From Spirochaetia bacterium (GTDB taxonomy: Bacteria > Spirochaetota > Spirochaetia > UBA9216): a stretch of DNA of 64,000 bases. Every line of letters starts with the position of its first letter. The stretch's first letter is position 1. Below are positions 33,566-51,388 of the stretch, in pieces. The position numbers and the translations under genes are program-made. The notes beneath the pieces were generated by a model, which was given only the letters and a program-made list of their open reading frames with translations, was not told where the DNA came from and did no database searches. The stretch covers positions 256,001 to 320,000 of the forward strand of contig CAXXYH010000003.1 in the NCBI GenBank assembly GCA_963677925.2, in the 5' to 3' direction.

Positions 33566-34969
33566 TTAGACTATCTGAGGACCCTTTCTCATGAGGTACT
33601 GTCCAAAGCCCTTCTCAACGCAGAGTTTATCTCCGTCGGTAACGGTAGTTCCGCGGATGATTGTTCTCACCGGCATACCTTTGATTTCCATGCCTTCGTA
33701 TGCGTTGTAGTCAACATTCATATGATGTGTCTTTGCAGAGATTGTATGCGTCTTCTCAGGATCCCAGAATACGATATCAGCATCTGAACCTACTGAAATT
33801 GTACCCTTTCTAGGATAGAGGCCCATAGCCTTTGCTGTATTAGTAGATGTTATAGCAACAAAACGGTTAAGATCAATTTTACCGGAGTTAACACCGTTAT
33901 GGTACATTACCATCATTCGGTCTTCAATTCCGGGAATTCCATTAGGAATCATATGCCAGCCGGGTTTACCCAGTTCCTTACCTGCTTTTTTGCCGTCAAC
34001 TCCGCCTTCATAATTGAAGGAGCAGTGGTCTGTAGAAACACACTGAAGAGTAGTATTTCTTAGAGCTTCCCAGATATATTTTGCATCTTCCGGTGTTCTT
34101 ACGGGTGGTCCGCATGCCCATTTGGCACCTTCAAAACCGGGAACACGCATATCGTCTTCAAACTTGAACATATACTGAGTACATGTTTCTCCCATTACTT
34201 TGTAACCCTTTGAACGTCCAATAGCCATCTGCTCGATAGAATCGCTGCAGGACATGTGGACAACGTAGAGTTTTGCACCTGTAATGGCAGCCATGGCAAT
34301 GGCTCTGGCAGTAGCCTCACCCTCAATCTCACGCGGATGTGCGACAAGATGATACTTGGGCTCGAGTTTGCCTTCAGCAACAAGCTTTTCAGTAAGCAAA
34401 GCAATGGCATCTCCGTTCTCGGAGTGTGTCATTAACATTATATCAGCCTCTGCAGTTTTCTCCATAGCCTTATACAGCGCGGTATCATCAACCATAAAAG
34501 CGCCTTTGTAAGCCTGAAAAACCTTCAGAGAACAAACACCGATATCATTGAGGGTGGAAATTTCATTGATAGATTCTTCTGTAGGATCGGTTATAGCAAT
34601 ATGGAAACCATAATCGATGATGGTATTTCCCTTTGCCTTTTCCTGCCACATTTCAACACCCTGTTTCAGGGTCTGACCTTTCTGCTGTAAAGCAAAGTCA
34701 ATGTGAGTAGTTGTACCGCCGAATGCAGCTGCTGACTGTCCTGTGTAGAAATCGTCAGCTGTTATTGTACCGCCGAATGGCATATCCAGGTGGGTATGCG
34801 CATCGATACCACCGGGTATAAGGTATTTTCCTGAAGCATCTATAACTTCAGCGCCTTCTGAAGGAAGGTTTGATCCAATCATGGCAATTTTCTCGCCGTC
34901 GATCAGAACATCAGCCTTATAGGTGTCACTGGCGGTTACAATTGTACCGTTTTTAATAAGGGTCTTCAT
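33566..34969 (-). CDS. hydA: Dihydropyrimidinase / hydantoinase
   Basis: PGGIDAHTH, AAAFGGTTT, HSENG, YVVHMS, GETCTQY, STDHC, PNGIPGIE. Confidence 0.93.
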   Translation of the reverse strand: MKTLIKNGTIVTASDTYKADVLIDGEKIAMIGSNLPSEGAEVIDASGKYLIPGGIDAHTHLDMPFGGTITADDFYTGQSAAAFGGTTTHIDFALQQKGQTLKQGVEMWQEKAKGNTIIDYGFHIAITDPTEESINEISTLNDIGVCSLKVFQAYKGAFMVDDTALYKAMEKTAEADIMLMTHSENGDAIALLTEKLVAEGKLEPKYHLVAHPREIEGEATARAIAMAAITGAKLYVVHMSCSDSIEQMAIGRSKGYKVMGETCTQYMFKFEDDMRVPGFEGAKWACGPPVRTPEDAKYIWEALRNTTLQCVSTDHCSFNYEGGVDGKKAGKELGKPGWHMIPNGIPGIEDRMMVMYHNGVNSGKIDLNRFVAITSTNTAKAMGLYPRKGTISVGSDADIVFWDPEKTHTISAKTHHMNVDYNAYEGMEIKGMPVRTIIRGTTVTDGDKLCVEKGFGQYLMRKGPQIV

Positions 34970-37130: not shown

Positions 37131-37895
37131 ATGAAAGATCTCAAATGGTATTTTCCGGATAATCTTTCAGCTGCAGTTGAACTATTTTCCGCTGGTAACA
37201 AACTTCATGGCGGGGGCACCTTTCTTTTCAAATCTCCGCTCAACACGCCCGGTCTGATTGATTTAAGACATATCACACAGATGAATACAATTGAAATTAC
37301 TGATGATACAATCAGAATCGGTGCGAACTGCACCTATACCGATATTTCAAAGTTTCTATCAGAATTAGATGCCGAAAATATTTTCACAGCATCGATCGGA
37401 AACGCGGCAGCAACTCCGCTGCGTAACCGAATCACATTGGGCGGCAGCATTCACGCTGCTCCGAAGTGGTCCGACATCACCGGCCCGCTTCTTGTTTCAG
37501 ACGCCGGACTTCTTATCAACGGTTCTGAAGCTTCGGTTTCTGCAAAAGACTATTACAGCAGCAGGGAACTTAGAAAATCAGGGATTATATCCGAGGTGCT
37601 TATAAAGCTTAGCAACTTAAAAGGCAGCTATTTCAGATATACCAGAACTGATTTCGATTACCCCTTCTTTACTGTCTCTGCAGGAGCAGCAGCAGAAGGG
37701 AAATTTAACGTTGCAGTAACCGGAATCTCCGGCGGTTATCTATTATACAGCGGTACCCCTGATGAAATTATTGAACAGATTGATGCAGAAGCCGTATTCA
37801 GCGATGAAAGAGGTACCGGAGCTGAATATCTGAAACACCGCCTTATGGTTGAACTTAAAAGAACTCTCTCAAAGACCGGAGGTGACAATGTCTGA
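37131..37895 (+). CDS. Molybdo-hydroxylase FAD-binding subunit (YgfM-like)
   Basis: LHGGGT, IRIGA, LRNRITLGGSI; start moved to ATG 37131 (about 254 aa). Confidence 0.8.
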   Translation: MKDLKWYFPDNLSAAVELFSAGNKLHGGGTFLFKSPLNTPGLIDLRHITQMNTIEITDDTIRIGANCTYTDISKFLSELDAENIFTASIGNAAATPLRNRITLGGSIHAAPKWSDITGPLLVSDAGLLINGSEASVSAKDYYSSRELRKSGIISEVLIKLSNLKGSYFRYTRTDFDYPFFTVSAGAAAEGKFNVAVTGISGGYLLYSGTPDEIIEQIDAEAVFSDERGTGAEYLKHRLMVELKRTLSKTGGDNV

Positions 37896-38376
37896 TTTTA
37901 TTGAGATGGATTTTATAATCAACGGCAGAAGGGAATCATACAGGTTCAACCCCGGCGATACACTGCTTAAAGTTCTGCGTGATAACGGACATACAGAAGT
38001 TCATAACGGCTGTGAAAGCGGCGACTGCGGAGCCTGTGTCGTAATCATGGATGGCAGAACGGTTAATTCCTGCGCTGTATTTGCAGCCACAGCCTCGGAA
38101 CGCGAAATTATAACAGTTAAGGGTATCGGCAGCGTTCACAAACCGCATCCCATCCAGACAGCCTTTGCCGAAGCAGGCGCTATCCAGTGCGGATTCTGTA
38201 CTCCCGGACAGATAATGAGTACATACGCACTTTTAATGAATAATCCTGATCCCGGAATAGGTGAAATTAAAAAAGCACTCGACGGCAACTTATGCAGATG
38301 CACAGGCTACAAAAAAATAATTGAGGCGGTTCAGTTATCTGCATCAAGAATGAGGGAGGCTGATAATGAAGCATAG
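37888..38376 (+). CDS. Molybdo-hydroxylase 2x[2Fe-2S] subunit
   Basis: GCESGDCGAC...NSC, QCGFCTPG, GNLCRCTGY; ATG 37888 after GGAGG. Confidence 0.92.
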   Translation: MSDFIEMDFIINGRRESYRFNPGDTLLKVLRDNGHTEVHNGCESGDCGACVVIMDGRTVNSCAVFAATASEREIITVKGIGSVHKPHPIQTAFAEAGAIQCGFCTPGQIMSTYALLMNNPDPGIGEIKKALDGNLCRCTGYKKIIEAVQLSASRMREADNEA

Positions 38377-40684
38377 TTTTAAAGAAGCCTCTGTATCTCA
38401 CCCTAAATATGATGCACTGTCACTGGCCTGCGGGAGCGAGCATTATACCGACGACTATAAAACTGATAATCCTGTTTATGTTGCCTTTCTCTATTCCAAA
38501 ATAGCCTTCGGTGAAATCATATCAATAGACACTTCTGAAGCTGAAAAAGCTGATGGTGTACAGGGGATATATCATTATGGAAATACCCCTTCTACACTGT
38601 ACACGACAGCAGGTCAGGGTTTTCCGGAACCATCTCCGTATGACTGCAGGATGTTCGATCGTTATGTCCGATTCTGCGGCGATCGTATAGCAGCTGTCGC
38701 TGCCGATGATATAGAAACTGCCAGAAAAGCCGTTAACCTGATTAAAGTTGAAATACGGGAAAAAACACCGCTTTTCGATGTTGAATCAGCGATGGAGTCG
38801 GATGCTCCGAGGCTTCATTTTGATGACGAATACCCTGCGATTCCGGTAACTTATAAACCCGAAAAAAACCTTGCCGCCGAAGTAATTATCGGATTCGGCG
38901 ATATGGAAAAAGGGTTTGACACAGCAGATGAAATTCTTGAGGACAGTTACAGCATGCAGTACGCGTCCCACTGTGCCATGGAGCCTCATTCAGTTATTAC
39001 ATATTTCGACAGCCGCGGCAGGCTTGTGATCGTTTCCGCAACCCAGGTTCCCTATCATGTAAGACGCATAACAGGAAGGGTCTGCGGCCGTGAGCTTAAA
39101 CAGATACGCGTAATAAAACCGCGTGTGGGCGGAGGATTCGGCGGAAAGCAGGAGGTTTTTCTTGAACCTGCGGCTGCATGGATAGCCTGGGACCTTAAAA
39201 GATCTGTTCGTATTATTCTTTCAAGAAAAGAAGTCTTTATCAGCAGCAGGACACGACATCCAATGCGGAGCCGTGTGAAAATCGGTTTTAAGAAATCCGG
39301 TAAAATAACCGCTCTGGAAATAGACGATCTGATGAACGCAGGAGCCTACGGACCGCATGCTCTTACTGTTCTTTCAAACGCAGGCGCAAAGGTACTTCCG
39401 CTCTACAATAAAATTGAGAATATGGCGTTCACGGGAAGGTCAGTATATACAAACCTTCCGGTAGGCGGGGCATATCGCGGTTACGGAGCTACCCAGGGTT
39501 ACTTTGCACTGAATCAGCATATAGATGAGATTTCAAGACGCTGCGGCATAGATTTTCTCGACTATGTGATGAAATGGCATATAAAATCGGGTGAAACATC
39601 CAAAGTCTTTGAAGCCCTCGGTGAGGGAAAAGAAGGCGTCAGTCAGTACATTCGGTCCTGCGGCCTTGATGAATGCATCAAAAGGGGCGCAGCCGCCATC
39701 GACTGGAAAAACAAACGCGGAAAAAAAATAAAAAAAGGAAGCCTTATAAGCGGCGTCGGCGCCTCTGTAAGCATGCAGGGGTCCGGAATTCCCGAGATTG
39801 ATATGGCAAGCTGTTATATCAAGATGAATGAGGACGGTTCTTTCAATCTGCAGACTGGAGCTACTGATATAGGCCAGGGTTCGGATACCATCCTTGCTCA
39901 GATTGCAGCTGAAGTGCTGCACACCGAAACAGCAGAATTTATTGTTCTCTCATCAGATACAGATACAACACCCTTTGATACCGGAGCTTATGCTTCTTCG
40001 ACTACATATGTAACCGGGAATGCTGTTAAAAATTGTGCTCAATCCGTTTTCAGTCAGATTATGGACGCAGCCTCTGAAATGCTGGGAATACCGGTTGATA
40101 AACTCAAGGCGGAAACAGGAATAGTAACAGCAGATAACGGAAAGAAAAGTATAACCTACGGTGAAATCTGCGCCTACAGACTTTATACTTCCGGACAGTT
40201 TCAGATTCAGGCTACCGAATCCTATGTCGGAAGTGAGTCGCCGCCCCCTTTCACAGCGCAGTTTGCTGAAGTAACTGTAGACACGGAAACCGGTGAAATA
40301 AAAGTAGTTAAATTTGTAACAGGCATGGACTGCGGAACAGCTCTCAACCCGATGCTTGCAGAAGGTCAGATAGAGGGAGCGGTCATGAACGGTATTTCCT
40401 ATGCTCTTACAGAAGAATACCTGTTCAATAAAGACGGCCGAATGACTAATCCGGACTTCGGAGCCTATAAAATCTTCAATGCAGCAGATGCTCCGGAGAT
40501 GGTTACAATTATTGCGGACAGTTTTGAAGAAACCGGACCTCTCGGAGCCAAAAGTGTCGGAGAGATTGCTCTTAACGGTCCGGCACCGGCAATTGCAAAT
40601 GCAGTCTTTGACGCTGTCGGAATAAGACTTACCCAGACCCCGTTTACAGCGGAAAAGGTATGGGAAAAACTTAACAGGGTTTAA
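38366..40684 (+). CDS. Molybdopterin-binding subunit, XdhD-like
   Basis: YTTAGQGFPEPSPYD (XdhD-like), GGGFGGKQ, AYRGYG, DIGQG, GAKSVGE. Confidence 0.88.
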   Translation: MKHSFKEASVSHPKYDALSLACGSEHYTDDYKTDNPVYVAFLYSKIAFGEIISIDTSEAEKADGVQGIYHYGNTPSTLYTTAGQGFPEPSPYDCRMFDRYVRFCGDRIAAVAADDIETARKAVNLIKVEIREKTPLFDVESAMESDAPRLHFDDEYPAIPVTYKPEKNLAAEVIIGFGDMEKGFDTADEILEDSYSMQYASHCAMEPHSVITYFDSRGRLVIVSATQVPYHVRRITGRVCGRELKQIRVIKPRVGGGFGGKQEVFLEPAAAWIAWDLKRSVRIILSRKEVFISSRTRHPMRSRVKIGFKKSGKITALEIDDLMNAGAYGPHALTVLSNAGAKVLPLYNKIENMAFTGRSVYTNLPVGGAYRGYGATQGYFALNQHIDEISRRCGIDFLDYVMKWHIKSGETSKVFEALGEGKEGVSQYIRSCGLDECIKRGAAAIDWKNKRGKKIKKGSLISGVGASVSMQGSGIPEIDMASCYIKMNEDGSFNLQTGATDIGQGSDTILAQIAAEVLHTETAEFIVLSSDTDTTPFDTGAYASSTTYVTGNAVKNCAQSVFSQIMDAASEMLGIPVDKLKAETGIVTADNGKKSITYGEICAYRLYTSGQFQIQATESYVGSESPPPFTAQFAEVTVDTETGEIKVVKFVTGMDCGTALNPMLAEGQIEGAVMNGISYALTEEYLFNKDGRMTNPDFGAYKIFNAADAPEMVTIIADSFEETGPLGAKSVGEIALNGPAPAIANAVFDAVGIRLTQTPFTAEKVWEKLNRV

Positions 40685-40685
40685 G

Positions 40686-41993
40686 ATGAAAAAGAAGATA
40701 CTGCTTAAAAACTGCGTCATCGCCGACAGAACATTATTCATAGAGAACGGAGCCTTGCTGATTGAAGACGGAAGCATTAAAAAAATTACTTCAGCCCCCG
40801 ATTCAATCAAAACGGATTTAAATGATACTGATATTTTCGATCTGCAGGGCCGCCTGCTTCTCCCGGGACTGACAAATCCGCATACACACCTTTATTCATC
40901 ACTAGCAACAGGCCTGTCTCCGCTTAACACACCTAGAAACTTCTCGGAAATACTTTCAAATTACTGGTGGCCGCTTGATAAAGTTCATGATGAACAATCT
41001 GTTTACTACAGCGCTGTAGCCGGAATACTGGACGCTGTCAAGCACGGAGTCACATGTATCTTCGACCATCATGCTTCGATGAGTTTTGTTGAAGGCAGTC
41101 TTGATGTAATTGAAAAAGCTGTAAAGCTTTCCGGAATAAAGGCAGTACTATGTTATGAAACAAGCGGCCGTTACGGAATGGATAAGGTTCCTTTGCATGT
41201 TGAAGAGAATCTTGATTTTCTTCAGCGTCACACACATGATACTCATATTAAAGGAATGCTTGGTTTTCATGCAAACTTTACTCTGAGCAATTCTGCACTT
41301 GCTGAGACAGCAGAAGTTATCTCAAAATACCTTGGCGAAATCCCCATACACATTCACTGCGGAGAGGATAAGGCTGATCTTGATTTCTGTCTCGAAAGCG
41401 GATATTACGGTCCAGTAGACCGGCTTGATCGTTACAGACTGATCAATTCAAAATCAATTCTGGCACACTGTGTTCACCTTTCTCATAAAGACTATGAAAT
41501 ACTGCATGATGTTAAACCCCATATCGTAACCAATCCCGAATCAAATGCGAACAACCGCGTAGGAAAAATGGATCGTTCTATTCTGCCTTTTTTCACTCTG
41601 GGAACCGACGGGATGAGTTTTGATATGATTGCATCGCTTCGCTCAATGTATCTGCTGGGAAGGGGATATACCGAAGATATGAAAAAGCTTCATGACACTT
41701 TCTTCGGAGAAACAGCAAAACTCGTTCAGGATTATTTTCCTTCTTCAGGGACACTTGAGGAAGGAAAAGATGCAGACATCGCGGTACTCGATTATATTCC
41801 TCAGACAGAAATTAAGGCAGACAATCTGATAGGACATTTAATTTTTGGTGCAAAGGGCGGAAATGCTTATATGACCATTGCAAGGGGAAATATATTGTAC
41901 AGCAGCGGAAATATCAATTTCACTTACGAAGGAAGTTTGCGGACTGAAATCAAAAAAGCCGCGGCTGAACTTCACCGGAGGTATCATGGCTGA
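40686..41993 (+). CDS. ssnA: SsnA-like amidohydrolase
   Basis: PGLTNPHTHLYS, YWWPLDK, GVTCIFDHHAS, HANFT, NPESNANNRVG. Confidence 0.82.
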   Translation: MKKKILLKNCVIADRTLFIENGALLIEDGSIKKITSAPDSIKTDLNDTDIFDLQGRLLLPGLTNPHTHLYSSLATGLSPLNTPRNFSEILSNYWWPLDKVHDEQSVYYSAVAGILDAVKHGVTCIFDHHASMSFVEGSLDVIEKAVKLSGIKAVLCYETSGRYGMDKVPLHVEENLDFLQRHTHDTHIKGMLGFHANFTLSNSALAETAEVISKYLGEIPIHIHCGEDKADLDFCLESGYYGPVDRLDRYRLINSKSILAHCVHLSHKDYEILHDVKPHIVTNPESNANNRVGKMDRSILPFFTLGTDGMSFDMIASLRSMYLLGRGYTEDMKKLHDTFFGETAKLVQDYFPSSGTLEEGKDADIAVLDYIPQTEIKADNLIGHLIFGAKGGNAYMTIARGNILYSSGNINFTYEGSLRTEIKKAAAELHRRYHG

Positions 41994-42876
41994 TCTGTCA
42001 GTAAAAATTAATGGAATTGACTTCTTAAATCCTGTAATGCCGGCTGCCGGACCGAATGTAAAAACAGCTGTTCTAATGACCAGGGCTGCACAGCTCGGGG
42101 CGGGTGCAATTGTTTCAAAAACCTTTTCAGTGAAACCTGCATCAGACCCAAGACCGACGATGAAGAAGATAAGGGATGGCGGACTTCTGAACTGCGAAAC
42201 ATGGCTTGAGGACAGTTACAGCAATTTCATTGATGAACTGCATAAAGTAAAAGAAAACAATATACCGCTCATTGTTTCAATAGGTTACAGCGCAGAGGAT
42301 GTAAATTTCCTGGGCAGTCTGCTTGAAAGGGAAATTAAACCGGACGCAGTTGAATTCTCAACCCATTACACGGGCCATGATGTTGAACCGCTGGTTGATG
42401 TAGCAGAATCACTGCGGAATAGTGTTAAGGTCCCTGTATGGATGAAGATTTCCCCGGGCTTTCCCGACATCGAAAAACTTGTACTTGCAGCAGAACCCTT
42501 TGTCGACGCTTTTGTTGCGGTTAATTCACTAGGACCGGCACTCGATTTCGATCCGGTCAAATGCAGACCTTCATTAGGTTCTGACTGGGGTCAGGGCTGG
42601 ATATCCGGACCTCCGCTGATGCCTGTTGCCCTGGCGGTTGTTCACAGGCTTTCCATGACAGTAAAAAAACCGATTGTCGGCGTCGGCGGAATCACCACCG
42701 GTGAGGATGCGGTAAAGTTCCTCATGGCGGGAGCCTCCGCGGTTCAAGTCTGTACAGCGGCTATTCATGAGGGGCCGTCAGCATACGGCAGGATTGCTGA
42801 AGAGATAAATACCTGGCTTGATGACAATAACTATTCTGAGATAAAGGAAATAATCGGACTTTATAGAAAAAATTAA
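41986..42876 (+). CDS. Dihydroorotate/dihydropyrimidine dehydrogenase-fold FMN enzyme
   Basis: NPVMPAAGP, GAIVSKT, PVWMKISP, AVNS, GVGGI, AGASAVQVCT; ATG 41986 after GGAGG. Confidence 0.8.
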   Translation: MADLSVKINGIDFLNPVMPAAGPNVKTAVLMTRAAQLGAGAIVSKTFSVKPASDPRPTMKKIRDGGLLNCETWLEDSYSNFIDELHKVKENNIPLIVSIGYSAEDVNFLGSLLEREIKPDAVEFSTHYTGHDVEPLVDVAESLRNSVKVPVWMKISPGFPDIEKLVLAAEPFVDAFVAVNSLGPALDFDPVKCRPSLGSDWGQGWISGPPLMPVALAVVHRLSMTVKKPIVGVGGITTGEDAVKFLMAGASAVQVCTAAIHEGPSAYGRIAEEINTWLDDNNYSEIKEIIGLYRKN

Positions 42877-42893
42877 TATCAGGAGTTTTTAGA

Positions 42894-44114
42894 ATGACAT
42901 CCGAAATTTACAGCCTCATAGAAGACCTTTCCCAAAAATACAGGGACTACACTGCAGACAATCTGTCAAAGATTGTTCAAATACCAAGTTTCAGCGGTCA
43001 GGAGGAGGATGTTATAAAAAAACTTCAGTCGCTATGCGTAACGGCAGGTTTTGATGATGTCTATATCGACGGACTCGGAAATCTGATTGGACGTGTAGGA
43101 AACGGTCCGATGAAAATTGCATTCGACGCACATATTGATACGGTAACAGTCGGTGATGAAAAACAATGGACTACTCCGCCCTTCTCCGGTGAAATAACAG
43201 AAGAACTGGTAAAAGGCAGAGGAGCAGCAGATCAGAAAGGCGGTGCAGCATCTATGATAACCGCCGGACGTATGCTGAAGGAATTGGGCTATGACGGAAA
43301 GTTCTCAGTATTTTTCACATTTACAGTCATGGAAGAAGACTGCGACGGCATGTGCTGGAAATTCATTATTGAAGAAGAAAAGCTTGTACCTGATTATTTC
43401 GTAAGCACCGAGCCCTCATCCTGCAATCTGTACCGCGGTCACCGCGGCAGAATGGAAATGGAAGTAATTTTCAAGGGAGTTTCCTGTCACGGCAGTGCTC
43501 CGGAACGCGGAGAAAGTGCTGCATATAAGGCTGCTAGAGGTGCATTAGCAGCAGAAAAACTCAATGAAGAACTGGAACCTGATGAGGATAATTTTCTCGG
43601 AAAGGGCACTGTTGTTGTTTCTGTTATGGACGCCCACGGACCGTCTCAATGCGCAGTCCCCGATCAGGCAAAACTCTATCTTGATCGAAGGCTGACATGG
43701 GGCGAAACCGAGGAACTTGCTGTAGAGCAAATTAAAAAAATCATGCCTGATGCTGAATCAGTTACAGTACCCTACTATGATAAAATCAGCTGGAAAGGAA
43801 CTAAATACGGCCAGCCGCTTTATTTCCCTACCTGGAAGATAGGTCGTGAGCATAAACTTGTTACATCAGGAGAGTCTGCGTACCGAAGCCTGTTTAACAA
43901 GGATGTAAAGGTTGACAAGTGGACTTTCTCGACCAATGCAGTGTCAGTTTGCGGGCGTCACGGAATTCCTTCAATAGGCTTCGGGCCTGGTGATGAAAAC
44001 CAGGCTCACGCACCGAATGAAGTTAACCGGATTGATGACCTCAGGCTGTGCAGCGCCTTTTATACAGCCCTTGTCTACTCGCTTGAAGCACAGCTTGAAG
44101 GTAACCAAAATTGA
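42894..44114 (+). CDS. ygeY: YgeY-family M20 hydrolase
   Basis: FDAHIDTV, GRGAADQKGG, EEDCDG, YRGHRGRME, GVSCHGSAPERG, DRRLTWGE. Confidence 0.9.
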   Translation: MTSEIYSLIEDLSQKYRDYTADNLSKIVQIPSFSGQEEDVIKKLQSLCVTAGFDDVYIDGLGNLIGRVGNGPMKIAFDAHIDTVTVGDEKQWTTPPFSGEITEELVKGRGAADQKGGAASMITAGRMLKELGYDGKFSVFFTFTVMEEDCDGMCWKFIIEEEKLVPDYFVSTEPSSCNLYRGHRGRMEMEVIFKGVSCHGSAPERGESAAYKAARGALAAEKLNEELEPDEDNFLGKGTVVVSVMDAHGPSQCAVPDQAKLYLDRRLTWGETEELAVEQIKKIMPDAESVTVPYYDKISWKGTKYGQPLYFPTWKIGREHKLVTSGESAYRSLFNKDVKVDKWTFSTNAVSVCGRHGIPSIGFGPGDENQAHAPNEVNRIDDLRLCSAFYTALVYSLEAQLEGNQN

Positions 44115-45277
44115 AATTTTATTACAGATGTTCTGACTGCGGTAAAACCTATGATATCAAACCAGATGTATATCTGTGTCCTTCATGTTCTTCAAGACAG
44201 CCTGAAAACAGGCCCCTAAAAGGAGTTCTTGAAACAACATTTGAAGGCAAAACGGATCCAGATACAAAAGATCACAAAGATTTCATTCATCGGCTCCTTC
44301 CGGTAGAAAAAAAATATTTCCCGCCTGTGCCTGTGGGAAGTACCCCGCTATGGAAGCCGGAAAATCTCCGTAGAGAACTAAATCTTGAAGAACTGTATAT
44401 CAAGGATGATACTCTTAATCCAACCGGAAGTCTGAAGGATCGTGCATCCTACCTTGTTTCCGCATTTGCTAATAAATACAGGATAAATGAAATAACAGTT
44501 GCTTCGACAGGAAATGCGGCTTCATCCATGTCCGGAATCGGAGCATCAGCAGGGCAGAAAATAAAAATCTTTATACCTAAATCTGCACCAAAAGCAAAAA
44601 TGGTTCAGTCGCTTCAGTACGGGGCAGAAGTTACTCTTGTTGAAGGAACTTATGATCTGGCCTTTGATCAGTCAATCGCTTACACGAAAGAGAACGGAGG
44701 TTTGAACAGGAACACAGCTTTTAATCCTCTTACACTTGCAGGGAAAAAAACCGCTGCTCTTGAAATATTTCTCCAGCTGGGGAAGGTTCCTGACTATCTC
44801 TTTGTTCCTGTAGGAGACGGTGTAATTCTCGGAGGACTATACAGAGGTTTTGAAGATTTAATCCGTCTCGGACTTTCAGAAAAAGTTCCGGTTATTCACA
44901 GCGTTCAGGCCGAGGGCTCAAATGCCATAAACAGAGCCTTAAAAAACGGAGATTTCTCGGATCCGGTTTCATCCTCAACAGTAGCAGATTCAATTTCAGT
45001 TGATATTCCCCGAAACGGTTATCTTGCCATGAAAAAACTGATACAGCATTCAGGAGTCGGGGTAGATGTTTCAGACACCGAAATCCTTTCAGCACAGAAA
45101 AAACTCGCATCAACCACAGGGCTGTTCGCAGAGCCTTCATCGTCCTCTGTGCTGGCAGGGCTGCTCGCATTCAGAAAACAAATTCCGGATCGTGCTGCTG
45201 TTGTTCTACTCGTAACAGGCAGCGGCTTAAAAGACATCGACGGAGCAATGAAAGGGCTTGAATTAAACGGAGTTTAA
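44111..45277 (+). CDS. Threonine-synthase-like fold-type II PLP enzyme
   Basis: N-terminal CxxC..CxxC; NPTGSLKDRAS, ASTGNAA, VPVGDG, TGSGLKD; TTG start overlaps the ygeY stop. Confidence 0.82.
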   Translation: MKFYYRCSDCGKTYDIKPDVYLCPSCSSRQPENRPLKGVLETTFEGKTDPDTKDHKDFIHRLLPVEKKYFPPVPVGSTPLWKPENLRRELNLEELYIKDDTLNPTGSLKDRASYLVSAFANKYRINEITVASTGNAASSMSGIGASAGQKIKIFIPKSAPKAKMVQSLQYGAEVTLVEGTYDLAFDQSIAYTKENGGLNRNTAFNPLTLAGKKTAALEIFLQLGKVPDYLFVPVGDGVILGGLYRGFEDLIRLGLSEKVPVIHSVQAEGSNAINRALKNGDFSDPVSSSTVADSISVDIPRNGYLAMKKLIQHSGVGVDVSDTEILSAQKKLASTTGLFAEPSSSSVLAGLLAFRKQIPDRAAVVLLVTGSGLKDIDGAMKGLELNGV

Positions 45278-45278
45278 T

Positions 45279-47417
45279 ATGCACAAAATAAGTAATCCGG
45301 TAATCAGAACAGATGCAGCCTCCAAGGCATCAGGGAAGGCGGAATACACCGCGGATCTTGATTTTGAAGGACTTACCTGGGGTATACCTGTGGCCTCTTC
45401 AATTCAATGCGGAACTATTGAATCTATCCGTTACCCCGAACTGCCTGAAGGTTATTTTATAACAGGCGCAGATGACATAGACGGCCTTAACAGAGCAAGC
45501 ATTGTAGCACAGGATTGGCCGGTTTTTGCTGAGAAGGAAATTTCTTTCTACGGACAGACAATATGTGTAGTATCAGGACCTGACCAGAACATATGCAGGG
45601 CATTGGCAGCCAATATTAAAATAGATTATTTCCAGACAGACGCGGTTTCCGGGATCGGGGAATCTGCAGAGTGGTTCAATGATTATCATATTAAAAAGGG
45701 AGATCCTGAAAAGAGTTTCAGTTCGGCATGGAAAATCTTTGTTAATGAATTCCGTACAGGTATTCAGGAACAGGCATATATGGAACCTCAGGCAATGACT
45801 GCCGTCTATAACAACGGCAGTTTAACAATATACGGGTCACTTCAATGTCCCTATTATGTTAAGAATTCAATTGCGGCCAGTTTCAAACTTGACCCCGAGA
45901 AGATACGGATTATTCAGTCTGTAACCGGAGGGGCTTTTGGAGGCAAAGAAGATTATCCCTCAATACTTGCATCCCAGGCTGCTGCTGCTGCAATAAAATC
46001 AGGTTCCCCTGTTCGGATAGTTCTTGACCGCCGATATGACATGACCGTCACTCCAAAGCGCCACCCTTCTGTCATACGAATACGTACTGCGGTAGATAAA
46101 GAAGGTCGAATTACAGCACTCGATATAGATACTAAAATTGACGCCGGTGCCTTTCAGACTCTATCAGGTGTAGTACTTGAACGTGCAGTTTTTATCTGCA
46201 GCGGAGCGTACAATATAGAAAATCTAAAAGTTCGCGGAAGAACGATGAAAACTAATCATGTGCCTTCCGGAGCGTTCAGAGGGTTTGGAGGCCCGCAGGC
46301 TTTGTTTGCTGCAGAGATGAATATGTATGCAGTTGCAAAGGCACTTAAACAGGATCCATCCGGGTTTAAATTAAATCATTTGCTTAAAAAAGGAGACCTG
46401 TCGGTTACCGGAGGGCGTTTCCGCGAAGATATACTTCTTAAACAGATGTTTGAGAAGGTTAATAAAGTATCCGGATATACAGAAAAATATGAACGTTATT
46501 CAAAGCCGGAAAATTTGCAGAGCCGTAAGATACGAGGCATAGGTATATCATATGCTGCACACGGAGGCGCCTTTACCGGAAGCGGTGAACAGGAAATCAT
46601 AAAAAGTCTCGTAAGGCTGAAAGCTTCTCCTGCCGATTCCGACCCTGATAAACCCGTAATAACAGTGCTGGTTTCAAATGTTGAAATGGGTCAGGGAGCA
46701 TCAACCACTCTTAGAAAGATAGTTGCTGAAACAATGAATATCCCGCTTTGTAACATTGTTTTTCAGCAGCCTGATACTGCTGAGGTTCCTGATTCAGGGC
46801 CGACGGTAGCTTCCCGCACGGTAATGATTGTAGGCAAGCTTCTCGCCGATGCTGCAGCTGAACTGTCATTAAAACTCAAAGATTCTGTAAGTAATTATTC
46901 AGATGCAATTACCGTGGAAAAGCGGTATGTGCATCCACCAGGACTTGTTTGGGATGAAAAGACATTCAGCGGTGATGCTTATCCAGGATACAGCTGGTCG
47001 GTAAATGTCGTCGAAGTGGAAGTCGACAGCCTAACCAGACAGATTGAGGTAAAGGGCTCCTGGGCAGTTTATGATGTCGGAACGCCGATCGATCTTACCA
47101 TACTTAAGGGACAGATGCAGGGAGGAACAGTCCAGGCATTCGGATATTCAACAATAGAAAACATGACGCTTCGCAATGGAAAATTCGCCCAGGCTTCTTT
47201 TACAGACTATACAATTCCCACAACAATGGATTTTCCTGACACCGAATGCCAATTCATGGATAACCCATACCCCCGCGGCCCCTTCGGAGCCAAGGCTGCA
47301 GGAGAACTTCCAAACGAAGGGCCTGCTGCAGCTGTAGCAGCAGCTGTATCTCAGGCTACAGGGAAAATACAGTACAGCATACCTATAACACCTGAAATGC
47401 TCGAGGAACAGTCATGA
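45279..47417 (+). CDS. Second molybdopterin-binding subunit (PucD/XdhA-like)
   Basis: EQAYMEPQ, GGAFGGKED, GAFRGFGGPQ, VEMGQG, GPTVASR, GAKAAGE. Confidence 0.88.
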   Translation: MHKISNPVIRTDAASKASGKAEYTADLDFEGLTWGIPVASSIQCGTIESIRYPELPEGYFITGADDIDGLNRASIVAQDWPVFAEKEISFYGQTICVVSGPDQNICRALAANIKIDYFQTDAVSGIGESAEWFNDYHIKKGDPEKSFSSAWKIFVNEFRTGIQEQAYMEPQAMTAVYNNGSLTIYGSLQCPYYVKNSIAASFKLDPEKIRIIQSVTGGAFGGKEDYPSILASQAAAAAIKSGSPVRIVLDRRYDMTVTPKRHPSVIRIRTAVDKEGRITALDIDTKIDAGAFQTLSGVVLERAVFICSGAYNIENLKVRGRTMKTNHVPSGAFRGFGGPQALFAAEMNMYAVAKALKQDPSGFKLNHLLKKGDLSVTGGRFREDILLKQMFEKVNKVSGYTEKYERYSKPENLQSRKIRGIGISYAAHGGAFTGSGEQEIIKSLVRLKASPADSDPDKPVITVLVSNVEMGQGASTTLRKIVAETMNIPLCNIVFQQPDTAEVPDSGPTVASRTVMIVGKLLADAAAELSLKLKDSVSNYSDAITVEKRYVHPPGLVWDEKTFSGDAYPGYSWSVNVVEVEVDSLTRQIEVKGSWAVYDVGTPIDLTILKGQMQGGTVQAFGYSTIENMTLRNGKFAQASFTDYTIPTTMDFPDTECQFMDNPYPRGPFGAKAAGELPNEGPAAAVAAAVSQATGKIQYSIPITPEMLEEQS

Positions 47418-47908
47418 ACAGCAATGTAAAAATTAACCTGAAATTTAATCTGAATGGAAAAGATATTGAAATAACTGCGGGCTCTTCTGAGCGTCTGCTT
47501 GATATTCTGCGGAATAAATTTGAACTGACAGGTGTCAAGGAAGGCTGCGGTGAGGGCGAATGCGGCGCCTGCAGTATCCTGAGAAACGGAAGGCTTGTAA
47601 ATTCCTGCACTATACCTGCGGCAGCAGTAGATGGCGATGAAATTATAACCATAGAAGGTTTCAGTAAAACCGAGGAATTCAGGATAATTTCAGAAGCATA
47701 TGCTCAATGCGGCGCTGTACAGTGCGGATTCTGTACACCGGGGTTCATACTGGCAACAGCAGCTTTGCTTAGAAAAAACCCGAATCCTGATGATGAACAG
47801 ATAAAAGAAGGTCTTTCAGGTAATCTCTGCCGCTGCACAGGATACAGTATGATTATGGAAGCTGTAAAAACCGCTTCTCAAAACGGAGCACACATATGGC
47901 GGAAATAA
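47414..47908 (+). CDS. [2Fe-2S] subunit (PucE/XdhC-like)
   Basis: GCGEGECGAC, QCGFCTPG, GNLCRCTGY. Confidence 0.93.
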   Translation: MNSNVKINLKFNLNGKDIEITAGSSERLLDILRNKFELTGVKEGCGEGECGACSILRNGRLVNSCTIPAAAVDGDEIITIEGFSKTEEFRIISEAYAQCGAVQCGFCTPGFILATAALLRKNPNPDDEQIKEGLSGNLCRCTGYSMIMEAVKTASQNGAHIWRK

Positions 47909-48819
47909 TTAACCTCTCACCGAAAAATATAGAAGATGCACTGCTTCTGCTCGAAAAAGGTTTCATACCTGTTGCAGGCGGTTCAGATTTAATGGTCAGA
48001 CGTCATGCCTTATTAAACCAGGGCTCTTCGTTTCCATCTGATACCCGAAATCGTGATTTTCCTGAAATCTTCTATACCGGTCACATAAAAGATTTTGATG
48101 TGATTGAAAAAGACTGCTCGCTGTTTTATGCCGGGGCTTCTGTTGTCCTGTCCGACCTGATTGAACACAGTGATACCCCTCCGCCTCTAGTAGAAGCGTT
48201 AAAACACATTGCTTCCCCCGGAATACGAAATACCGCAACCCTTGCAGGCAATATCTGCAACGCAAGCCCTGCCGCGGATTCCTTACCTGTGCTGTATATC
48301 CTTGATACTGAAATTGAATGTATTTCATTAATAAATAAGAAAAACAGTAACGCCGGAACCACAATAAGAAAAGTTGCAATAGATGATTTCATCACAGGAC
48401 CGGGATCTACTGACTTAAAAGCAGGTGAACTTCTTCGCGGTATCAGCATGACATATGATTCCGATTTGCAGACGAAATTTATCAAAGTAGGAACAAGGGC
48501 TGCAAATGCACTATCCAAGCTCAGCATTGCGGCAGCATGGGAACTTGTAGACGGGAATATAGAAGATATTAGAATAGCAGTAGGGGCCTGCGGTCCGAAG
48601 GTAATAAGAAGCGAAGAAGCTGAAGACCTGTTAACCGGTATAAATCCTTCAGAAGATTATGAAAAAATTAATCGTGCTGTTGAAATATATTCCAGTCTTT
48701 TAAAACCTATTAACGATCAGCGAAGTACTGCTCTATACAGATTTAATACTGCACTTCGGCTAATAAAAGATATTATCATTTCCACCGGAGATAAAGATGC
48801 TGATACTGAAAAATCTTAA
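47896..48819 (+). CDS. FAD-binding subunit (PucC/XdhB-like)
   Basis: VAGGSDL, IRNTATLAGNICNASPAAD, PINDQRST. Confidence 0.9.
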   Translation: MAEIINLSPKNIEDALLLLEKGFIPVAGGSDLMVRRHALLNQGSSFPSDTRNRDFPEIFYTGHIKDFDVIEKDCSLFYAGASVVLSDLIEHSDTPPPLVEALKHIASPGIRNTATLAGNICNASPAADSLPVLYILDTEIECISLINKKNSNAGTTIRKVAIDDFITGPGSTDLKAGELLRGISMTYDSDLQTKFIKVGTRAANALSKLSIAAAWELVDGNIEDIRIAVGACGPKVIRSEEAEDLLTGINPSEDYEKINRAVEIYSSLLKPINDQRSTALYRFNTALRLIKDIIISTGDKDADTEKS

Positions 48820-50158
48820 ATCTTTATACGATGGTTCACAACTGTATTCTGATGTGAACCTCATTATTAACGGAAACATCATTGAGGCTGTTGTAAGTAC
48901 AGCTGACATGGATTTTTCTCATTACCCTTCTCATGAAATAATCGACTGTTCAGGATGCATAGCAGTTCCCGGTTTTGTAAATACCCATCATCATTTCTAT
49001 CAGGTACTCACCCGCAATCTTCCTGAAGTACAGAATGCCGAACTTTTTGAATGGCTGGTTTTTCTCTATGAAAAATGGAAAAATATAGATTCTGAAGCGG
49101 TTTATTATTCTTCACTTTGCGCTTCAGCTGAATTAATGAAGACCGGATGTACATGTTCAACAGATCACCATTATCTTTATCCTTCCGGTTTTACCGGTGA
49201 TATTATGGGGCTTCAGTTTGAAGCAGCCGGAAAACTGGGTTTACGTTTTTCACCCACACGCGGCTCAATGTCACTCAGCAGAAAAGACGGTGGGCTGCCA
49301 CCTGATACAGTTGTACAGACAGGTACAGAAATAATCAAAGACAGTGAACGCGTAATCCGTGAGTTCCATGATGAGGATAGATATTCCATGCAGCGGATTA
49401 TACTTGCTCCCTGCAGCCCTTTTTCTGTTACTACAGAACTCATGAAGCAAACCGCTTTACTCGCACGTGAGAAGAACGTCCTTCTTCACACTCATCTTGC
49501 CGAAACCTTCGATGAGAATGATTTCTGTATCAAGAAACATGGAATAAGGCCGCTGGAGCTGATGAAAAGCTGTGATTTTACAGGCCCTGATGTTTCATTT
49601 GCCCATGGAATACATTTTAATGATGAGGAACTTTCCTACCTGAAAGATTCAGGATGCTGTATATGCCATTGCCCATCATCCAACATGCGGCTTGGCTCGG
49701 GAATTGCCCGTATCAGAGAGATGATTGATCTCGGAATTAATGTCAGTCTTGCTGTTGACGGTTCAGCATCGAATGACAGCTGCGATATGCTGGGTGAGAT
49801 AAGAGCCGCTCTGATGCTGCAGAGAATTAAATACGGAGCATCCGGATTGACAGTTAAAGAAGCCTTCAGCATGGCCTCTGCCGGCGGAGCTAAAACACTT
49901 AATTACGATACTATCGGATATATTAAACAGGGCTATGCTGCAGATGTTGCAGTCTTTGATATCTCAGGATTGGAATACTCAGGCTCAGAGTCCGATCCGC
50001 TCGCATCACTTATTTTCTGCGGGCATAATCACACTACTAAATATACGATAGTCAACGGAAAGATTACTGTCTATAAAGGAGAACTTACAGGATTTGATGA
50101 AGAGGAACTCTCATTTAAAACAAGAGAGATATCTTCAGCGCTTCTTAATAAATTCTAA
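48797..50158 (+). CDS. 8-oxoguanine deaminase-like amidohydrolase
   Basis: PGFVNTHHHFYQ.LTR, DHHY, RGSMS, APCSPFSV, HTHLAET, HCPSSNMRLGSG, VDGSASND. Confidence 0.82.
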   Translation: MLILKNLKSLYDGSQLYSDVNLIINGNIIEAVVSTADMDFSHYPSHEIIDCSGCIAVPGFVNTHHHFYQVLTRNLPEVQNAELFEWLVFLYEKWKNIDSEAVYYSSLCASAELMKTGCTCSTDHHYLYPSGFTGDIMGLQFEAAGKLGLRFSPTRGSMSLSRKDGGLPPDTVVQTGTEIIKDSERVIREFHDEDRYSMQRIILAPCSPFSVTTELMKQTALLAREKNVLLHTHLAETFDENDFCIKKHGIRPLELMKSCDFTGPDVSFAHGIHFNDEELSYLKDSGCCICHCPSSNMRLGSGIARIREMIDLGINVSLAVDGSASNDSCDMLGEIRAALMLQRIKYGASGLTVKEAFSMASAGGAKTLNYDTIGYIKQGYAADVAVFDISGLEYSGSESDPLASLIFCGHNHTTKYTIVNGKITVYKGELTGFDEEELSFKTREISSALLNKF

Positions 50159-50188
50159 TCTGCAAAATTTCTAAAAGAGAGGATAAAT

Positions 50189-51388
50189 ATGGAGAACAGG
50201 GAAATAAAAAAATTACTTACTGAACTTAACAGCCTTGACTGGTCAAAGATGTTCGGAGGAGATTTTCTGCTCACCTGGGATAAAACATTCGACGAACTTG
50301 ATGCCGTTTTCAAAACCGCTGAACTGCTCAGGCTGCTGCGTAAAGCCAATATATCTCCAAGAATATTTGATTCCGGTCTTGCTGTTTCAATCTTCAGGGA
50401 TAATTCCACCAGAACAAGGTTTTCTTTTGCCAGTGCTGCAAACCTGCTTGGCCTAACGGTTCAGGATCTTGATGAACAGAAATCTCAGATCGCACACGGA
50501 GAAACCGTCAGAGAAACCGCATGTATGATTAGTTTTCTTACAGAAGCAATCGGAATAAGAGATGATATCTTCATAGGAGAAGGACACACCTACATGACGG
50601 AAGTAGCAAAATCACTCAGTGAAGATTTTAAGGACGGCATTATTCCTTCAAGACCTGCACTTGTGAACCTTCAGTGCGATCTTGACCACCCGACTCAGGG
50701 TATGGCTGATACACTACACCTCATAAATACCTTCGGCGGTATTGACCAGCTCAAGGGTAAAAAGGTAGCAATGACCTGGGCATATTCTCCATCTTACGGG
50801 AAACCTCTTTCTGTTCCGCAGGGAGTGATCGGGTTGATGAGCCGCTTCGGAATGGATGTGAGTCTTGCATATCCGAAGGGGTACAATCTTATAGATGAAA
50901 CAGTTGAAATTGCAAAAGGATTTTCTGCTAAAAGCGGCGGAAGCTTTACTGTCACAAACTCAATGGAAGAAGCATTTGAAGGTGCTGATATAGTTTACCC
51001 GAAAAGCTGGGCTCCTTTCAGCGTGATGGAAAAACGTACTAAACTATTTCGGGAAAATGATCGTGAGGGTCTTGTTCAGTTAGAGAAAAACTGTCTGGAA
51101 CAGAACAAAGATTATATGTCATGGGAATGCAGTGAAGAACTTATGACTAAGACAAAAAACGGAAAAGCCGTGTATATGCATTGCCTGCCGGCAGATATAA
51201 GCGGAGTGAGCTGTGAACATGGAGAAGTAGCGGCTTCTGTATTTGACAGGTATCGTAAAACAACTTATATAGAAGCAGGATATAAACCTTATATAATTGC
51301 CGCCATGATCTTTTTAAGCAAGGTCATGAATCCTGTTTCAGGAATTCATGATCTTATTAAAAAGTCATCTTTCAGATCTCTAATATAG
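50189..51388 (+). CDS. ygeW: YgeW knotted carbamoyltransferase
   Basis: DFLLTW, FRDNSTRTRFS, NLQCDLDHPTQ, WAYSPSYGKPLSVPQG, YPKSWAP, HCLPADI. Confidence 0.93.
   Translation: MENREIKKLLTELNSLDWSKMFGGDFLLTWDKTFDELDAVFKTAELLRLLRKANISPRIFDSGLAVSIFRDNSTRTRFSFASAANLLGLTVQDLDEQKSQIAHGETVRETACMISFLTEAIGIRDDIFIGEGHTYMTEVAKSLSEDFKDGIIPSRPALVNLQCDLDHPTQGMADTLHLINTFGGIDQLKGKKVAMTWAYSPSYGKPLSVPQGVIGLMSRFGMDVSLAYPKGYNLIDETVEIAKGFSAKSGGSFTVTNSMEEAFEGADIVYPKSWAPFSVMEKRTKLFRENDREGLVQLEKNCLEQNKDYMSWECSEELMTKTKNGKAVYMHCLPADISGVSCEHGEVAASVFDRYRKTTYIEAGYKPYIIAAMIFLSKVMNPVSGIHDLIKKSSFRSLI

Follow-up and report, generated by a model that had tools for sequence, protein, structure and literature searches.

The 64,000-nucleotide window analyzed here (contig CAXXYH010000003.1 of assembly GCA_963677925.2, positions 256,001 to 320,000, hereafter contig C3) comes from a Spirochaetia bacterium with a genome of 5.04 Mb that is 99.63% complete and contains no N. 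At 37131-51388 the window carries a cluster of genes related to the reductive urate (2,8-dioxopurine) pathway. The cluster comprises 12 genes, all on the forward strand and separated by gaps of -23 to +30 bases, in the order FAD, Fe-S and molybdopterin (Mo) subunits of a first molybdoenzyme, ssnA, a gene of the dihydroorotate dehydrogenase (DHODH) fold, ygeY, a gene for a threonine synthase (ThrC)-like pyridoxal phosphate (PLP) enzyme that we call ThrL, the Mo, Fe-S and FAD subunits of a second molybdoenzyme, a deaminase gene, and ygeW (Table 1). A preliminary description of this stretch had already recognized the co-oriented, closely spaced genes and the hydA gene about 2 kb upstream on the other strand; all the named genes are present, but its gene count of 11 should read 12, the number that its own list holds.

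The identical 12-gene order recurs in relatives at protein identities of 40-80%, so the arrangement is not a product of chance. The full order is also present in the sister genome (L010, 92-99% identity), in G453, G455, G456 and G459 and at a metagenome locus (L092), and parts of it are found in G457, G458, L090 and L091. None of the 12 frames is disrupted, and all are conserved throughout the family. A scan for promoters and terminators in the sequence returned 26 and 14 sites, respectively, against 26.4 and 13.9 in shuffled sequences, and thus nothing beyond chance. In G455, genes for ExbB, TonB and a TonB receptor are inserted between the deaminase gene and ygeW (L151:17107 to L152:2503).

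Table 1. Genes of the cluster and the nearby hydA gene, with window positions and the matches on which the assignments are based
Gene or product	Position	Strand	Basis
hydA, dihydropyrimidinase/hydantoinase	33566..34969	-	TIGR02033 over cut-off; 35% to E. coli HyuA
YgfM-like FAD subunit of XdhD-type enzyme	37131..37895	+	PF00941; 23% to E. coli YgfM
2x[2Fe-2S] subunit	37888..38376	+	PF00111 + PF01799
XdhD-type molybdopterin subunit, probable urate -> 2,8-dioxopurine reductase	38366..40684	+	38% to E. coli XdhD; Glu606 kept
SsnA amidohydrolase, divergent; six-membered ring opening	40686..41993	+	SsnA models are best NCBIfam matches, under cut-off
UacX-type FMN barrel, 296 aa, probable 2,8-dioxopurine reductase	41986..42876	+	43%/37% to two C. 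difficile-type cluster PF01180 genes
YgeY ureido hydrolase	42894..44114	+	NF009555 + TIGR03526 over cut-off; 48% to E. coli YgeY
ThrL, ThrC-like PLP enzyme, proposed 2,3-diaminopropionate ammonia-lyase	44111..45277	+	PF00291; Lys109; N-terminal Cys4 motif
Second molybdopterin subunit, xanthine-dehydrogenase-like	45279..47417	+	Bovine xanthine oxidoreductase is best PDB match
2x[2Fe-2S] subunit of second Mo enzyme	47414..47908	+	PF00111 + PF01799
FAD subunit of second Mo enzyme	47896..48819	+	PF00941 + PF03450
8-oxoguanine-deaminase family enzyme, probable guanine/8-oxoguanine deaminase	48797..50158	+	NF006055 over cut-off
YgeW carbamoyltransferase	50189..51388	+	TIGR03316 + NF005538 over cut-off; 61% to E. 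coli YgeW

The start of the YgfM-like gene was chosen at 37131, the mechanical open reading frame beginning at 36963. The DHODH-fold gene and ThrL score under the cut-offs for pyrD and thrC, respectively.

In the known route, urate is converted to 2,8-dioxopurine by XdhD (DOPDH), the product is reduced by YgfK, the rings are opened by SsnA and HyuA, the ureido groups are stripped by YgeW and YgeY, and YgeX releases pyruvate (bioRxiv 10.1101/2025.04.24.650524; 10.1101/2025.05.19.654654 = PMC12507026). According to the same two preprints, the corresponding genes of E. coli and C. sporogenes are xdhD-ygfM, ygfK, ssnA, hyuA, ygeW, yqeA, ygeY, and ygeX, while in C. difficile the place of YgfK is taken by UacX, a PF01180 homologue of PydA (Li et al., PMC12507026). 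The proposal that both ygfK and ygeX have been replaced in the present cluster is supported by the whole genome, which holds neither elsewhere. The best genome-wide match to the YgeX model TIGR03528 has an E-value of 3.9e-7, tblastn with E. coli YgeX gave no match, and none of the 30 ygfK matches exceeds the cut-off or extends beyond the GltD part (model positions ~415-903). The two extra genes are conserved neighbours of ygeY and ygeW, and each excludes the gene that it would replace. Two candidates were considered and rejected, namely a 1080-aa frame (L001) as a hidden ygfK, in which the GltD part alone matches, and a PLP enzyme gene at C4:585281 as ygeX or thrC (27%, in a clade of its own).

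The ygeX slot is occupied by ThrL. Of 458 confirmed relatives of ThrL in the GTDB, we analyzed the best 80, which come from Spirochaetota, Bacteroidota, Ignavibacteria and other groups. These 80 loci are all without ygeX; 58 contain ygfK, ssnA, hyuA, ygeW, ygeY or a UacX-type gene, and a further 7 a xanthine dehydrogenase (XDH) gene alone. Likewise, ygeX (E<=1e-25) was found in none of 49 genomes chosen from these loci for their pathway neighbours. Two further samples were chosen by ygeW, which avoids the bias of picking by ThrL loci. Among spirochaetes, ygeW was present in 43 of 401 genomes, and 25 of the other 42 were tested (17 of one genus were dropped): 11 have ThrL only, 8 ygeX only, 5 both and 1 neither. 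In the five genomes with both genes, ThrL is part of the cluster or next to it; no pathway gene neighbours the ygeX homologue in the flank examined. Among Bacteroidales, ygeW was present in 88 of 381 genomes, of which 80 were tested and 8 left out (5 of them met earlier); ThrL only was found in 71, ygeX only in 6, both in 1 and neither in 2 (Fisher p 6e-7, an overstated value since kin are not independent). The exchange is visible in gene order as well: most Bacteroidales have ygfK-PLP2-ThrL, where PLP2 is a second PLP enzyme described below, and G1114 has ygfK-PLP2-ygeX; in G026 the order is ygfK-ygeX-xdh-ssnA, with ygeX in the ThrL slot. A divergent YgeX subfamily (L105, L134, L192, L193, L194; 36-42% identity to E. 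coli, TDGNH motif kept) sits in the ThrL slot of some spirochaete and Bacteroidales clusters, usually together with PLP2.

The ThrL orthologues form one clade (SH-aLRT 96 in a quick tree), apart from true ThrC and from YgeX. ThrL scores 156.9 bits against TIGR00260 (cut-off 167.1), and the true thrC of this genome, at C4:354548, scores 291.4. Its structural model (pLDDT 91.7) has a threonine-synthase fold with TM scores of 0.75-0.77 over the query to 2ZSJ, 6NMX and 1UIM, to which it is 31-34% identical with the PLP lysine kept, and a search of the ESM Atlas returned only 'threonine synthase' clusters of PF00291. We aligned 103 ThrL orthologues using the numbering of T. thermophilus ThrC, checked on 1UIM. 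Thr88 is replaced by Ala136 in 103 of 103 orthologues, Arg160 by Thr208 in 102 of 103, and both Gln164 (by Lys) and Asn188 (by Asp236) in all 103, and the ATAI motif of ThrC reads ADSI. Thr88, Arg160 and Asn188 are presumably ligands of the substrate phosphate, and an Asp at the Asn188 position would suit an amine. ThrL is 21% identical to E. coli YgeX over 231 residues, and the YgeX motif TDGNH is STGNA in ThrL. Of the two key residues named for YgeX, Lys77 and Asp120 (PMC4000059), the lysine is kept. Based on slot and exclusion, we propose that ThrL replaces YgeX as 2,3-diaminopropionate ammonia-lyase. This exchange is not described in the literature searched, which did not extend to the supplements of Li et al. 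and Liu et al.; in the main texts of bioRxiv 2025.05.19.654654 and 2025.04.24.650524, as far as available, the terms 'threonine' and 'threonine synthase' do not occur. At five loci of Ignavibacteria-like and Acidobacteriota genomes (L013, L020-L023), a 336-aa carbamoyltransferase with 32-38% identity to YgeW lies between ygeY and ThrL and is possibly a YgeW replacement.

ThrL has a frequent companion, PLP2, a protein of the CysK fold with Lys106 that matches no named family over cut-off. In this genome PLP2 is encoded at C3:1779519-1780991, 1.5 Mb from the operon and 16 kb from the carbamate kinase gene, which it adjoins in G453. PLP2 is present at 58 of the 80 ThrL loci. Across 80 chosen genomes (G450 being counted through L010), we found it in 43 of 45 genomes with ThrL, in 5 of 6 with divergent YgeX only, in 0 of 8 with close YgeX and no ThrL, in 0 of 16 without ygeW, and in 2 of the remaining 5. 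No CysK-fold companion of ThrL was found in the literature searched, nor were the short UacX and the missing selenium genes that are described below. Directly preceding PLP2 in this genome (L178:9188-10363; G000:C3:1781188-1782363, reverse strand) and in G450, G453 and G456 is a gene similar to D-3-phosphoglycerate dehydrogenase; a BMP-type ABC transporter is encoded upstream of it in this genome.

The ygfK slot is occupied by the 296-aa FMN barrel, a PF01180 protein encoded next to ssnA. As stand-ins for UacX, we used the PF01180 genes that lie beside dpaL-ygeY-D-aminoacylase-ssnA in plasmid records of Cetobacterium somerae and Clostridium butyricum, the C. difficile protein itself being outside the comparison. 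The barrel is 43% and 37% identical to these stand-ins, and 25-30% to the PreA and PyrD-like proteins of its own genome. It lacks the loop Cys of DHODH and DPD (N-x-S-C-P) and has E-F-S-T-H-Y instead, as do both stand-ins; the S, H and Y of this motif are present in 120 of 120 listed UacX-type homologues. In a weak profile alignment to YgfK residues 1-440 (probability 51%, E 1.5e-4), the motifs AAGP, N-x-E-(x)-W, S-(V/I)-G-Y and S-T-(M)-H coincide, each of which is fully or almost fully conserved in 47 YgfK sequences. A quick tree is compatible with UacX-type placement, long branches leaving that placement loose. The UacX-type gene was found in 7 of 10 family genomes; ygfK is present in none of these 7 and in 2 of the 3 others, and a ygfK match was obtained for each of the 21 other spirochaetes with ygeW that were tested (above the cut-off in 20). 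Of the two non-orthologous replacements put forward in the preliminary description, that of ygeX is supported, with a probable distant second PLP enzyme added, and that of ygfK is real as an exchange but is of the published UacX type, homologous to the FMN barrel of YgfK.

The barrel differs from both stand-ins by the absence of a C-terminal 2x[4Fe-4S] ferredoxin domain (the PydAc architecture) and of any CxxCxxCxxxC motif, of which each stand-in has two. The domain is present in 71 and absent from 49 of the 120 listed homologues, and in the quick tree it was apparently lost more than once. Ferredoxin-bearing homologues of 55-60% identity are among those listed; a search of 351 genomes of the G406 phylum, made without a positive control, gave no UacX-type gene. 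Since it has no ferredoxin domain, the short UacX would use a separate electron carrier. About nine GltD-like genes are candidate electron donors, including that for a 1080-aa multidomain protein with a GltD-type module (L169:4907-8149, G000:C4), the top match to the ygfK model. The SsnA of this cluster groups with relatives linked to UacX-type genes in a long-branch clade, separate from the SsnA of G454, which is linked to ygfK; this tree, built without a root test, suggests that reductase and SsnA were exchanged together. A predicted complex of the barrel with SsnA scored 0.00, which weighs neither for nor against an interaction. In family f34, the genes that lie upstream of ssnA were considered as a possible third reductase and rejected; they are unrelated, and ygfK is found elsewhere in those genomes. 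At L016 and L018, ssnA adjoins a GltD-type oxidoreductase gene in clusters with ThrL, ygeY and ygeW. No ygfK was found in the corresponding genomes G405 and G407, nor in G406 and G408; these clusters possibly have a further reductase type, or the assemblies may be incomplete.

Both molybdoenzymes have recognizable relatives. The first Mo subunit keeps XdhD Glu606 as Glu420, and a FastTree tree places it as sister to the XdhD clade. The second Mo subunit forms a clade separate from XdhD and aligns with bovine xanthine oxidoreductase at GGKE, LERA, AFRGFGGPQ and GE(L/P), which we take to be the sites of Glu802, Arg880, Phe914 and Glu1261; the aligned residues include Glu224, Arg302 and Glu676. 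We infer from these sequence features that the first enzyme is a urate reductase and the second a xanthine dehydrogenase, which probably catalyzes the step from (hypo)xanthine to urate. The Bacteroidales loci L026-L088 encode an ~850-aa single-chain XDH that lacks the Glu606 motif and belongs to a clade separate from XdhD; yqeB was not found in their genomes.

The absence of selenium accessory genes from the window extends to the whole genome, in which no selD, yqeB or yqeC was found and tblastn with the relatives' SelD, SelA, YqeB and YqeC gave no match. A SelB search of the genome returned GTPase paralogues only, and tRNA-Sec is missing among the ARAGORN calls. In G453, genes resembling selA and selB, identified by motif and location, lie between an aldolase gene and a serA-like gene. 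The same interval holds two other genes in the present genome, so this appears to be a real absence rather than an assembly hole. Given that selD, selA, selB, yqeB, yqeC, and tRNA-Sec are all missing, both molybdoenzymes are probably sulfur- rather than selenium-dependent. The sister genome also lacks selD and yqeB; five other carriers in the family have selD and lack yqeB, and yqeC was absent from all five genomes tested. Across 79 pathway genomes, many of them incomplete metagenome-assembled genomes, 16 have a yqeB match, 57 a selD match and 22 neither. SelD and YqeBC were reported in all gut strains with the cluster, and DOPDH (XdhAC) from a selD mutant of C. sporogenes was inactive; no residue explaining selenium versus sulfur dependence was found (Liu et al., bioRxiv 2025.04.24.650524). 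The mutant result concerns C. sporogenes XdhAC, and in the parts of the literature available we encountered no selenium test of E. coli XdhD; a sulfur-dependent enzyme of the XdhD type is therefore plausible.

The deaminase scores 556.5 bits against NF006055 (cut-off 532), and its best PDB matches are 3HPA and 7WW2, with which the HHHxxQ, APCSPF, HLAE and DGSAS motifs align. As to the suggested deamination of 8-oxoguanine to urate, guanine is at least as likely a substrate as 8-oxoguanine. The relatives Vcz and URA3 are stated to convert both guanine and 8-oxoguanine, with data not shown (PMC6186785), and the 8-oxoguanine-deaminase family has been placed in the GuaD cluster (PMC12828455). Guanine is likely the main substrate, since guaD is present in the E. 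coli cluster and in both plasmid clusters and no GuaD was found in this genome. Three matches to PF00383 were considered as guanine deaminases; by eye, one is dCMP-deaminase-like and one cytidine-deaminase-like, and the third is a frame of 393 aa.

The hydA gene, which scores over the D-hydantoinase cut-off, ends 2.2 kb upstream of the operon and has the same position in four relatives. In G453 and G456, two of five genomes searched, it is the only dihydropyrimidinase gene (E<=1e-60), which supports a role in the HyuA step; we regard this role as probable. The present genome has a second paralogue at C3:435878, and a HyuA tree did not separate the two. With this paralogue and preT/preA in the genome, hydA is possibly shared with pyrimidine breakdown. 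The pyrimidine-route genes preT/preA, an aminotransferase gene and an NCS2 permease gene lie at C3:349-361 kb. Between hydA and the operon, a 642-aa gene without Pfam or NCBIfam match (35066-36994, reverse strand) points away from the operon, the two being separated by 136 bases, and is conserved in the same interval of four relatives (51-55% identity). The M20 N-carbamoyl amidohydrolase encoded at 56091-57338 (forward strand) shares 89-91% identity with its counterparts from two relatives in the compared parts, and is probably the beta-ureidopropionase of the pyrimidine route.

Carbamate kinase and a transporter, also noted earlier as missing from the window, are present elsewhere. A carbamate kinase gene over cut-off lies at C3:1762269-1763195, 1.45 Mb from the operon, and the NCS2 permease is encoded at C3:360022-361545. 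An XdhC-type chaperone gene and a MocA-like gene are also located elsewhere in the genome. Genes of an NADH-dependent [FeFe] hydrogenase lie 2 kb from the carbamate kinase gene (L119:3060-6548, G000:C3:1757-1760 kb).

These data support the earlier view of the locus as an alternative version of the anaerobic urate pathway, through both its genes and their conserved order. The locus represents a genuine and conserved version of an established pathway, in which the UacX exchange is published and the ThrL exchange was not found in the literature searched. We infer all pathway activities from the observed gene content, homology, motifs and co-occurrence. The deaminase would convert guanine to xanthine and 8-oxoguanine to urate, and the second Mo enzyme would oxidize (hypo)xanthine to urate. 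The XdhD-type trimer would then convert urate to 2,8-dioxopurine, the ring of which would be reduced by the UacX-type barrel with electrons from a separate carrier and opened by SsnA and HydA. YgeW, with the distant carbamate kinase yielding ATP, and YgeY would take off the ureido groups, and ThrL, like YgeX, would form pyruvate from 2,3-diaminopropionate by eliminating ammonia. PLP2 may add a complementary step, one rendered unnecessary by classical YgeX, acting most simply on the other enantiomer or on a ureido-alanine side product. Both Mo enzymes would carry a sulfido ligand, as the genome has no selenophosphate synthesis. We favour this scheme in full, including ThrL as the lyase, the complementary PLP2 step and the sulfido Mo enzymes, as probably correct.

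Several observations weigh against it. The catalytic Asp120 and His123 of YgeX are Thr133 and Ala136 in ThrL, and ThrL and a YgeX homologue occur together in 5 of the 25 ygeW-positive spirochaetes and in 1 of the 80 Bacteroidales. No pathway gene was found at 15 of the 80 ThrL loci, several of which are on short contigs. SsnA reaches 369.8 bits against a cut-off of 444, the short UacX would take its electrons from a separate carrier, and UacX activity itself is mentioned in the methods alone of the available text of Li et al. (bioRxiv 2025.05.19.654654). Finally, as PLP2 also accompanies divergent YgeX, its role is not specific to ThrL, and PLP2 itself could be the true lyase.

The most serious alternative, which we nevertheless consider unlikely, takes up this last point: PLP2 would be the main diaminopropionate lyase, and ThrL, like the divergent YgeX that swaps with it, a racemase or an enzyme for the minor enantiomer feeding PLP2. 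PLP2 tracks the pathway nearly as tightly as ThrL does, adjoins ThrL at 58 of the 80 loci, neighbours carbamate kinase in G453 and is folded like beta-replacement enzymes. In ThrL, a Thr stands where YgeX has its second base, Asp120, and a racemase-lyase pair is known for cysteate (PMC11193023). Yet it is ThrL and not PLP2 that holds the ygeX slot, in one-for-one exchange with YgeX proteins that keep TDGNH, and PLP2 is missing from two of the ThrL genomes and outside the operon here.

Somewhat less probable still is a different ending from that of E. coli, with ThrL or PLP2 acting one step earlier, either liberating urea from albizziin (3-ureido-2-aminopropionate) or substituting sulfide or another nucleophile for the beta group. 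Enzymes of the threonine-synthase and CysK folds, to which ThrL and PLP2 belong, form aminoacrylate intermediates and perform replacement chemistry. The order of ureido cleavage is also disputed (PMC12990295). On the other side, the retention of ygeY and its 4-base overlap with ThrL imply that diaminopropionate is still made, and the mutual exclusion with ygeX points to the same step.

We give little credence to ThrL being simply an additional threonine synthase, or a passenger without relation to the pathway, which would then end at diaminopropionate: its nearest structures and Atlas clusters are threonine synthases and the loci without a pathway gene would fit, but a true thrC is present, three phosphate-site residues are altered in the whole clade, and a passenger would not exclude ygeX (both in 1 of 80 genomes against ~6 expected). 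Equally improbable is that the molybdoenzymes depend on selenium despite lacking SelD, YqeB and YqeC, or that the cluster is non-functional in this lineage; the gut carriers with SelD and YqeBC, the inactive selD-mutant enzyme and the retention of selD in 5 of 5 tested relatives of genus g153 would favour it, but the 12 frames are undisrupted and conserved throughout the family, the same relatives lack yqeB (0 of 5) and yqeC (0 of 3 tested), and selD and yqeB are both absent from over a quarter of the pathway genomes.

For hundreds of genomes without YgeX, in which the gene is annotated as 'threonine synthase', the proposed scheme provides candidate last-step enzymes of a pathway under medical study. 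Li et al. mention Spirochaetota, single out XdhD Glu606 and count YgeX by PF00291 (bioRxiv 2025.05.19.654654), a survey that lumps YgeX and ThrL. A natural selenium-free urate reductase of the XdhD type would make selenium versus sulfur dependence testable and could simplify urate-degrading probiotics. Since spirochaete genomes of free-living type and Bacteroidales genomes carry the pathway widely, the results bear on whether it is ancient or a recent gut pathway (PMC12990295). More tentatively, and with somewhat less than even confidence, we suggest that outside the gut the dominant reductive urate pathway uses a two-enzyme PLP module, ThrL plus a CysK-fold protein (one per enantiomer, or a racemase and a lyase), together with sulfido molybdoenzymes. 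If so, about a quarter of the sampled Bacteroidales species would carry the pathway, despite gut Bacteroidetes isolates reported as not consuming urate (bioRxiv 2022.07.24.501321), and an old sediment pathway would have been adopted later in guts.

Compared with known systems, the cluster shares with the E. coli and C. sporogenes pathway an XdhD-type enzyme with Glu606, SsnA, a HyuA-like protein, YgeW, YgeY, a carbamate kinase in the genome, and a second XDH-like enzyme. In contrast to that pathway, it has no ygfK, ygeX, guaD or selD/yqeB/yqeC, its XdhD is split into Fe-S and Mo genes, and carbamate kinase and permease are unlinked. With the C. difficile UacX variant, as represented by the stand-ins, it shares an FMN barrel adjoining ssnA (37-43% identity) with the N-x-E-x-W, GY and S-(T/A)-H-Y motifs, and the lack of ygfK; it differs in the 296-aa length without 2x[4Fe-4S], in having YgeW and not UacY, and in having ThrL and not YgeX. 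ThrL has in common with YgeX/DpaL (TIGR03528) the PLP fold type II, the place in the cluster and the proposed reaction, and is set apart by its threonine-synthase clade and fold, the N-terminal Cys4 motif and the CysK-fold partner. With the threonine synthases 2ZSJ, 6NMX and 1UIM it shares the fold and the PLP lysine, but it has the phosphate-site changes, scores under the TIGR00260 cut-off, and belongs to a separate clade in a host that also has a true thrC. The deaminase resembles the 8-oxoguanine/isocytosine deaminases 3HPA and 7WW2 in NF006055 membership and active-site motifs, whereas its position is held by guaD in other clusters and its substrate may be guanine.

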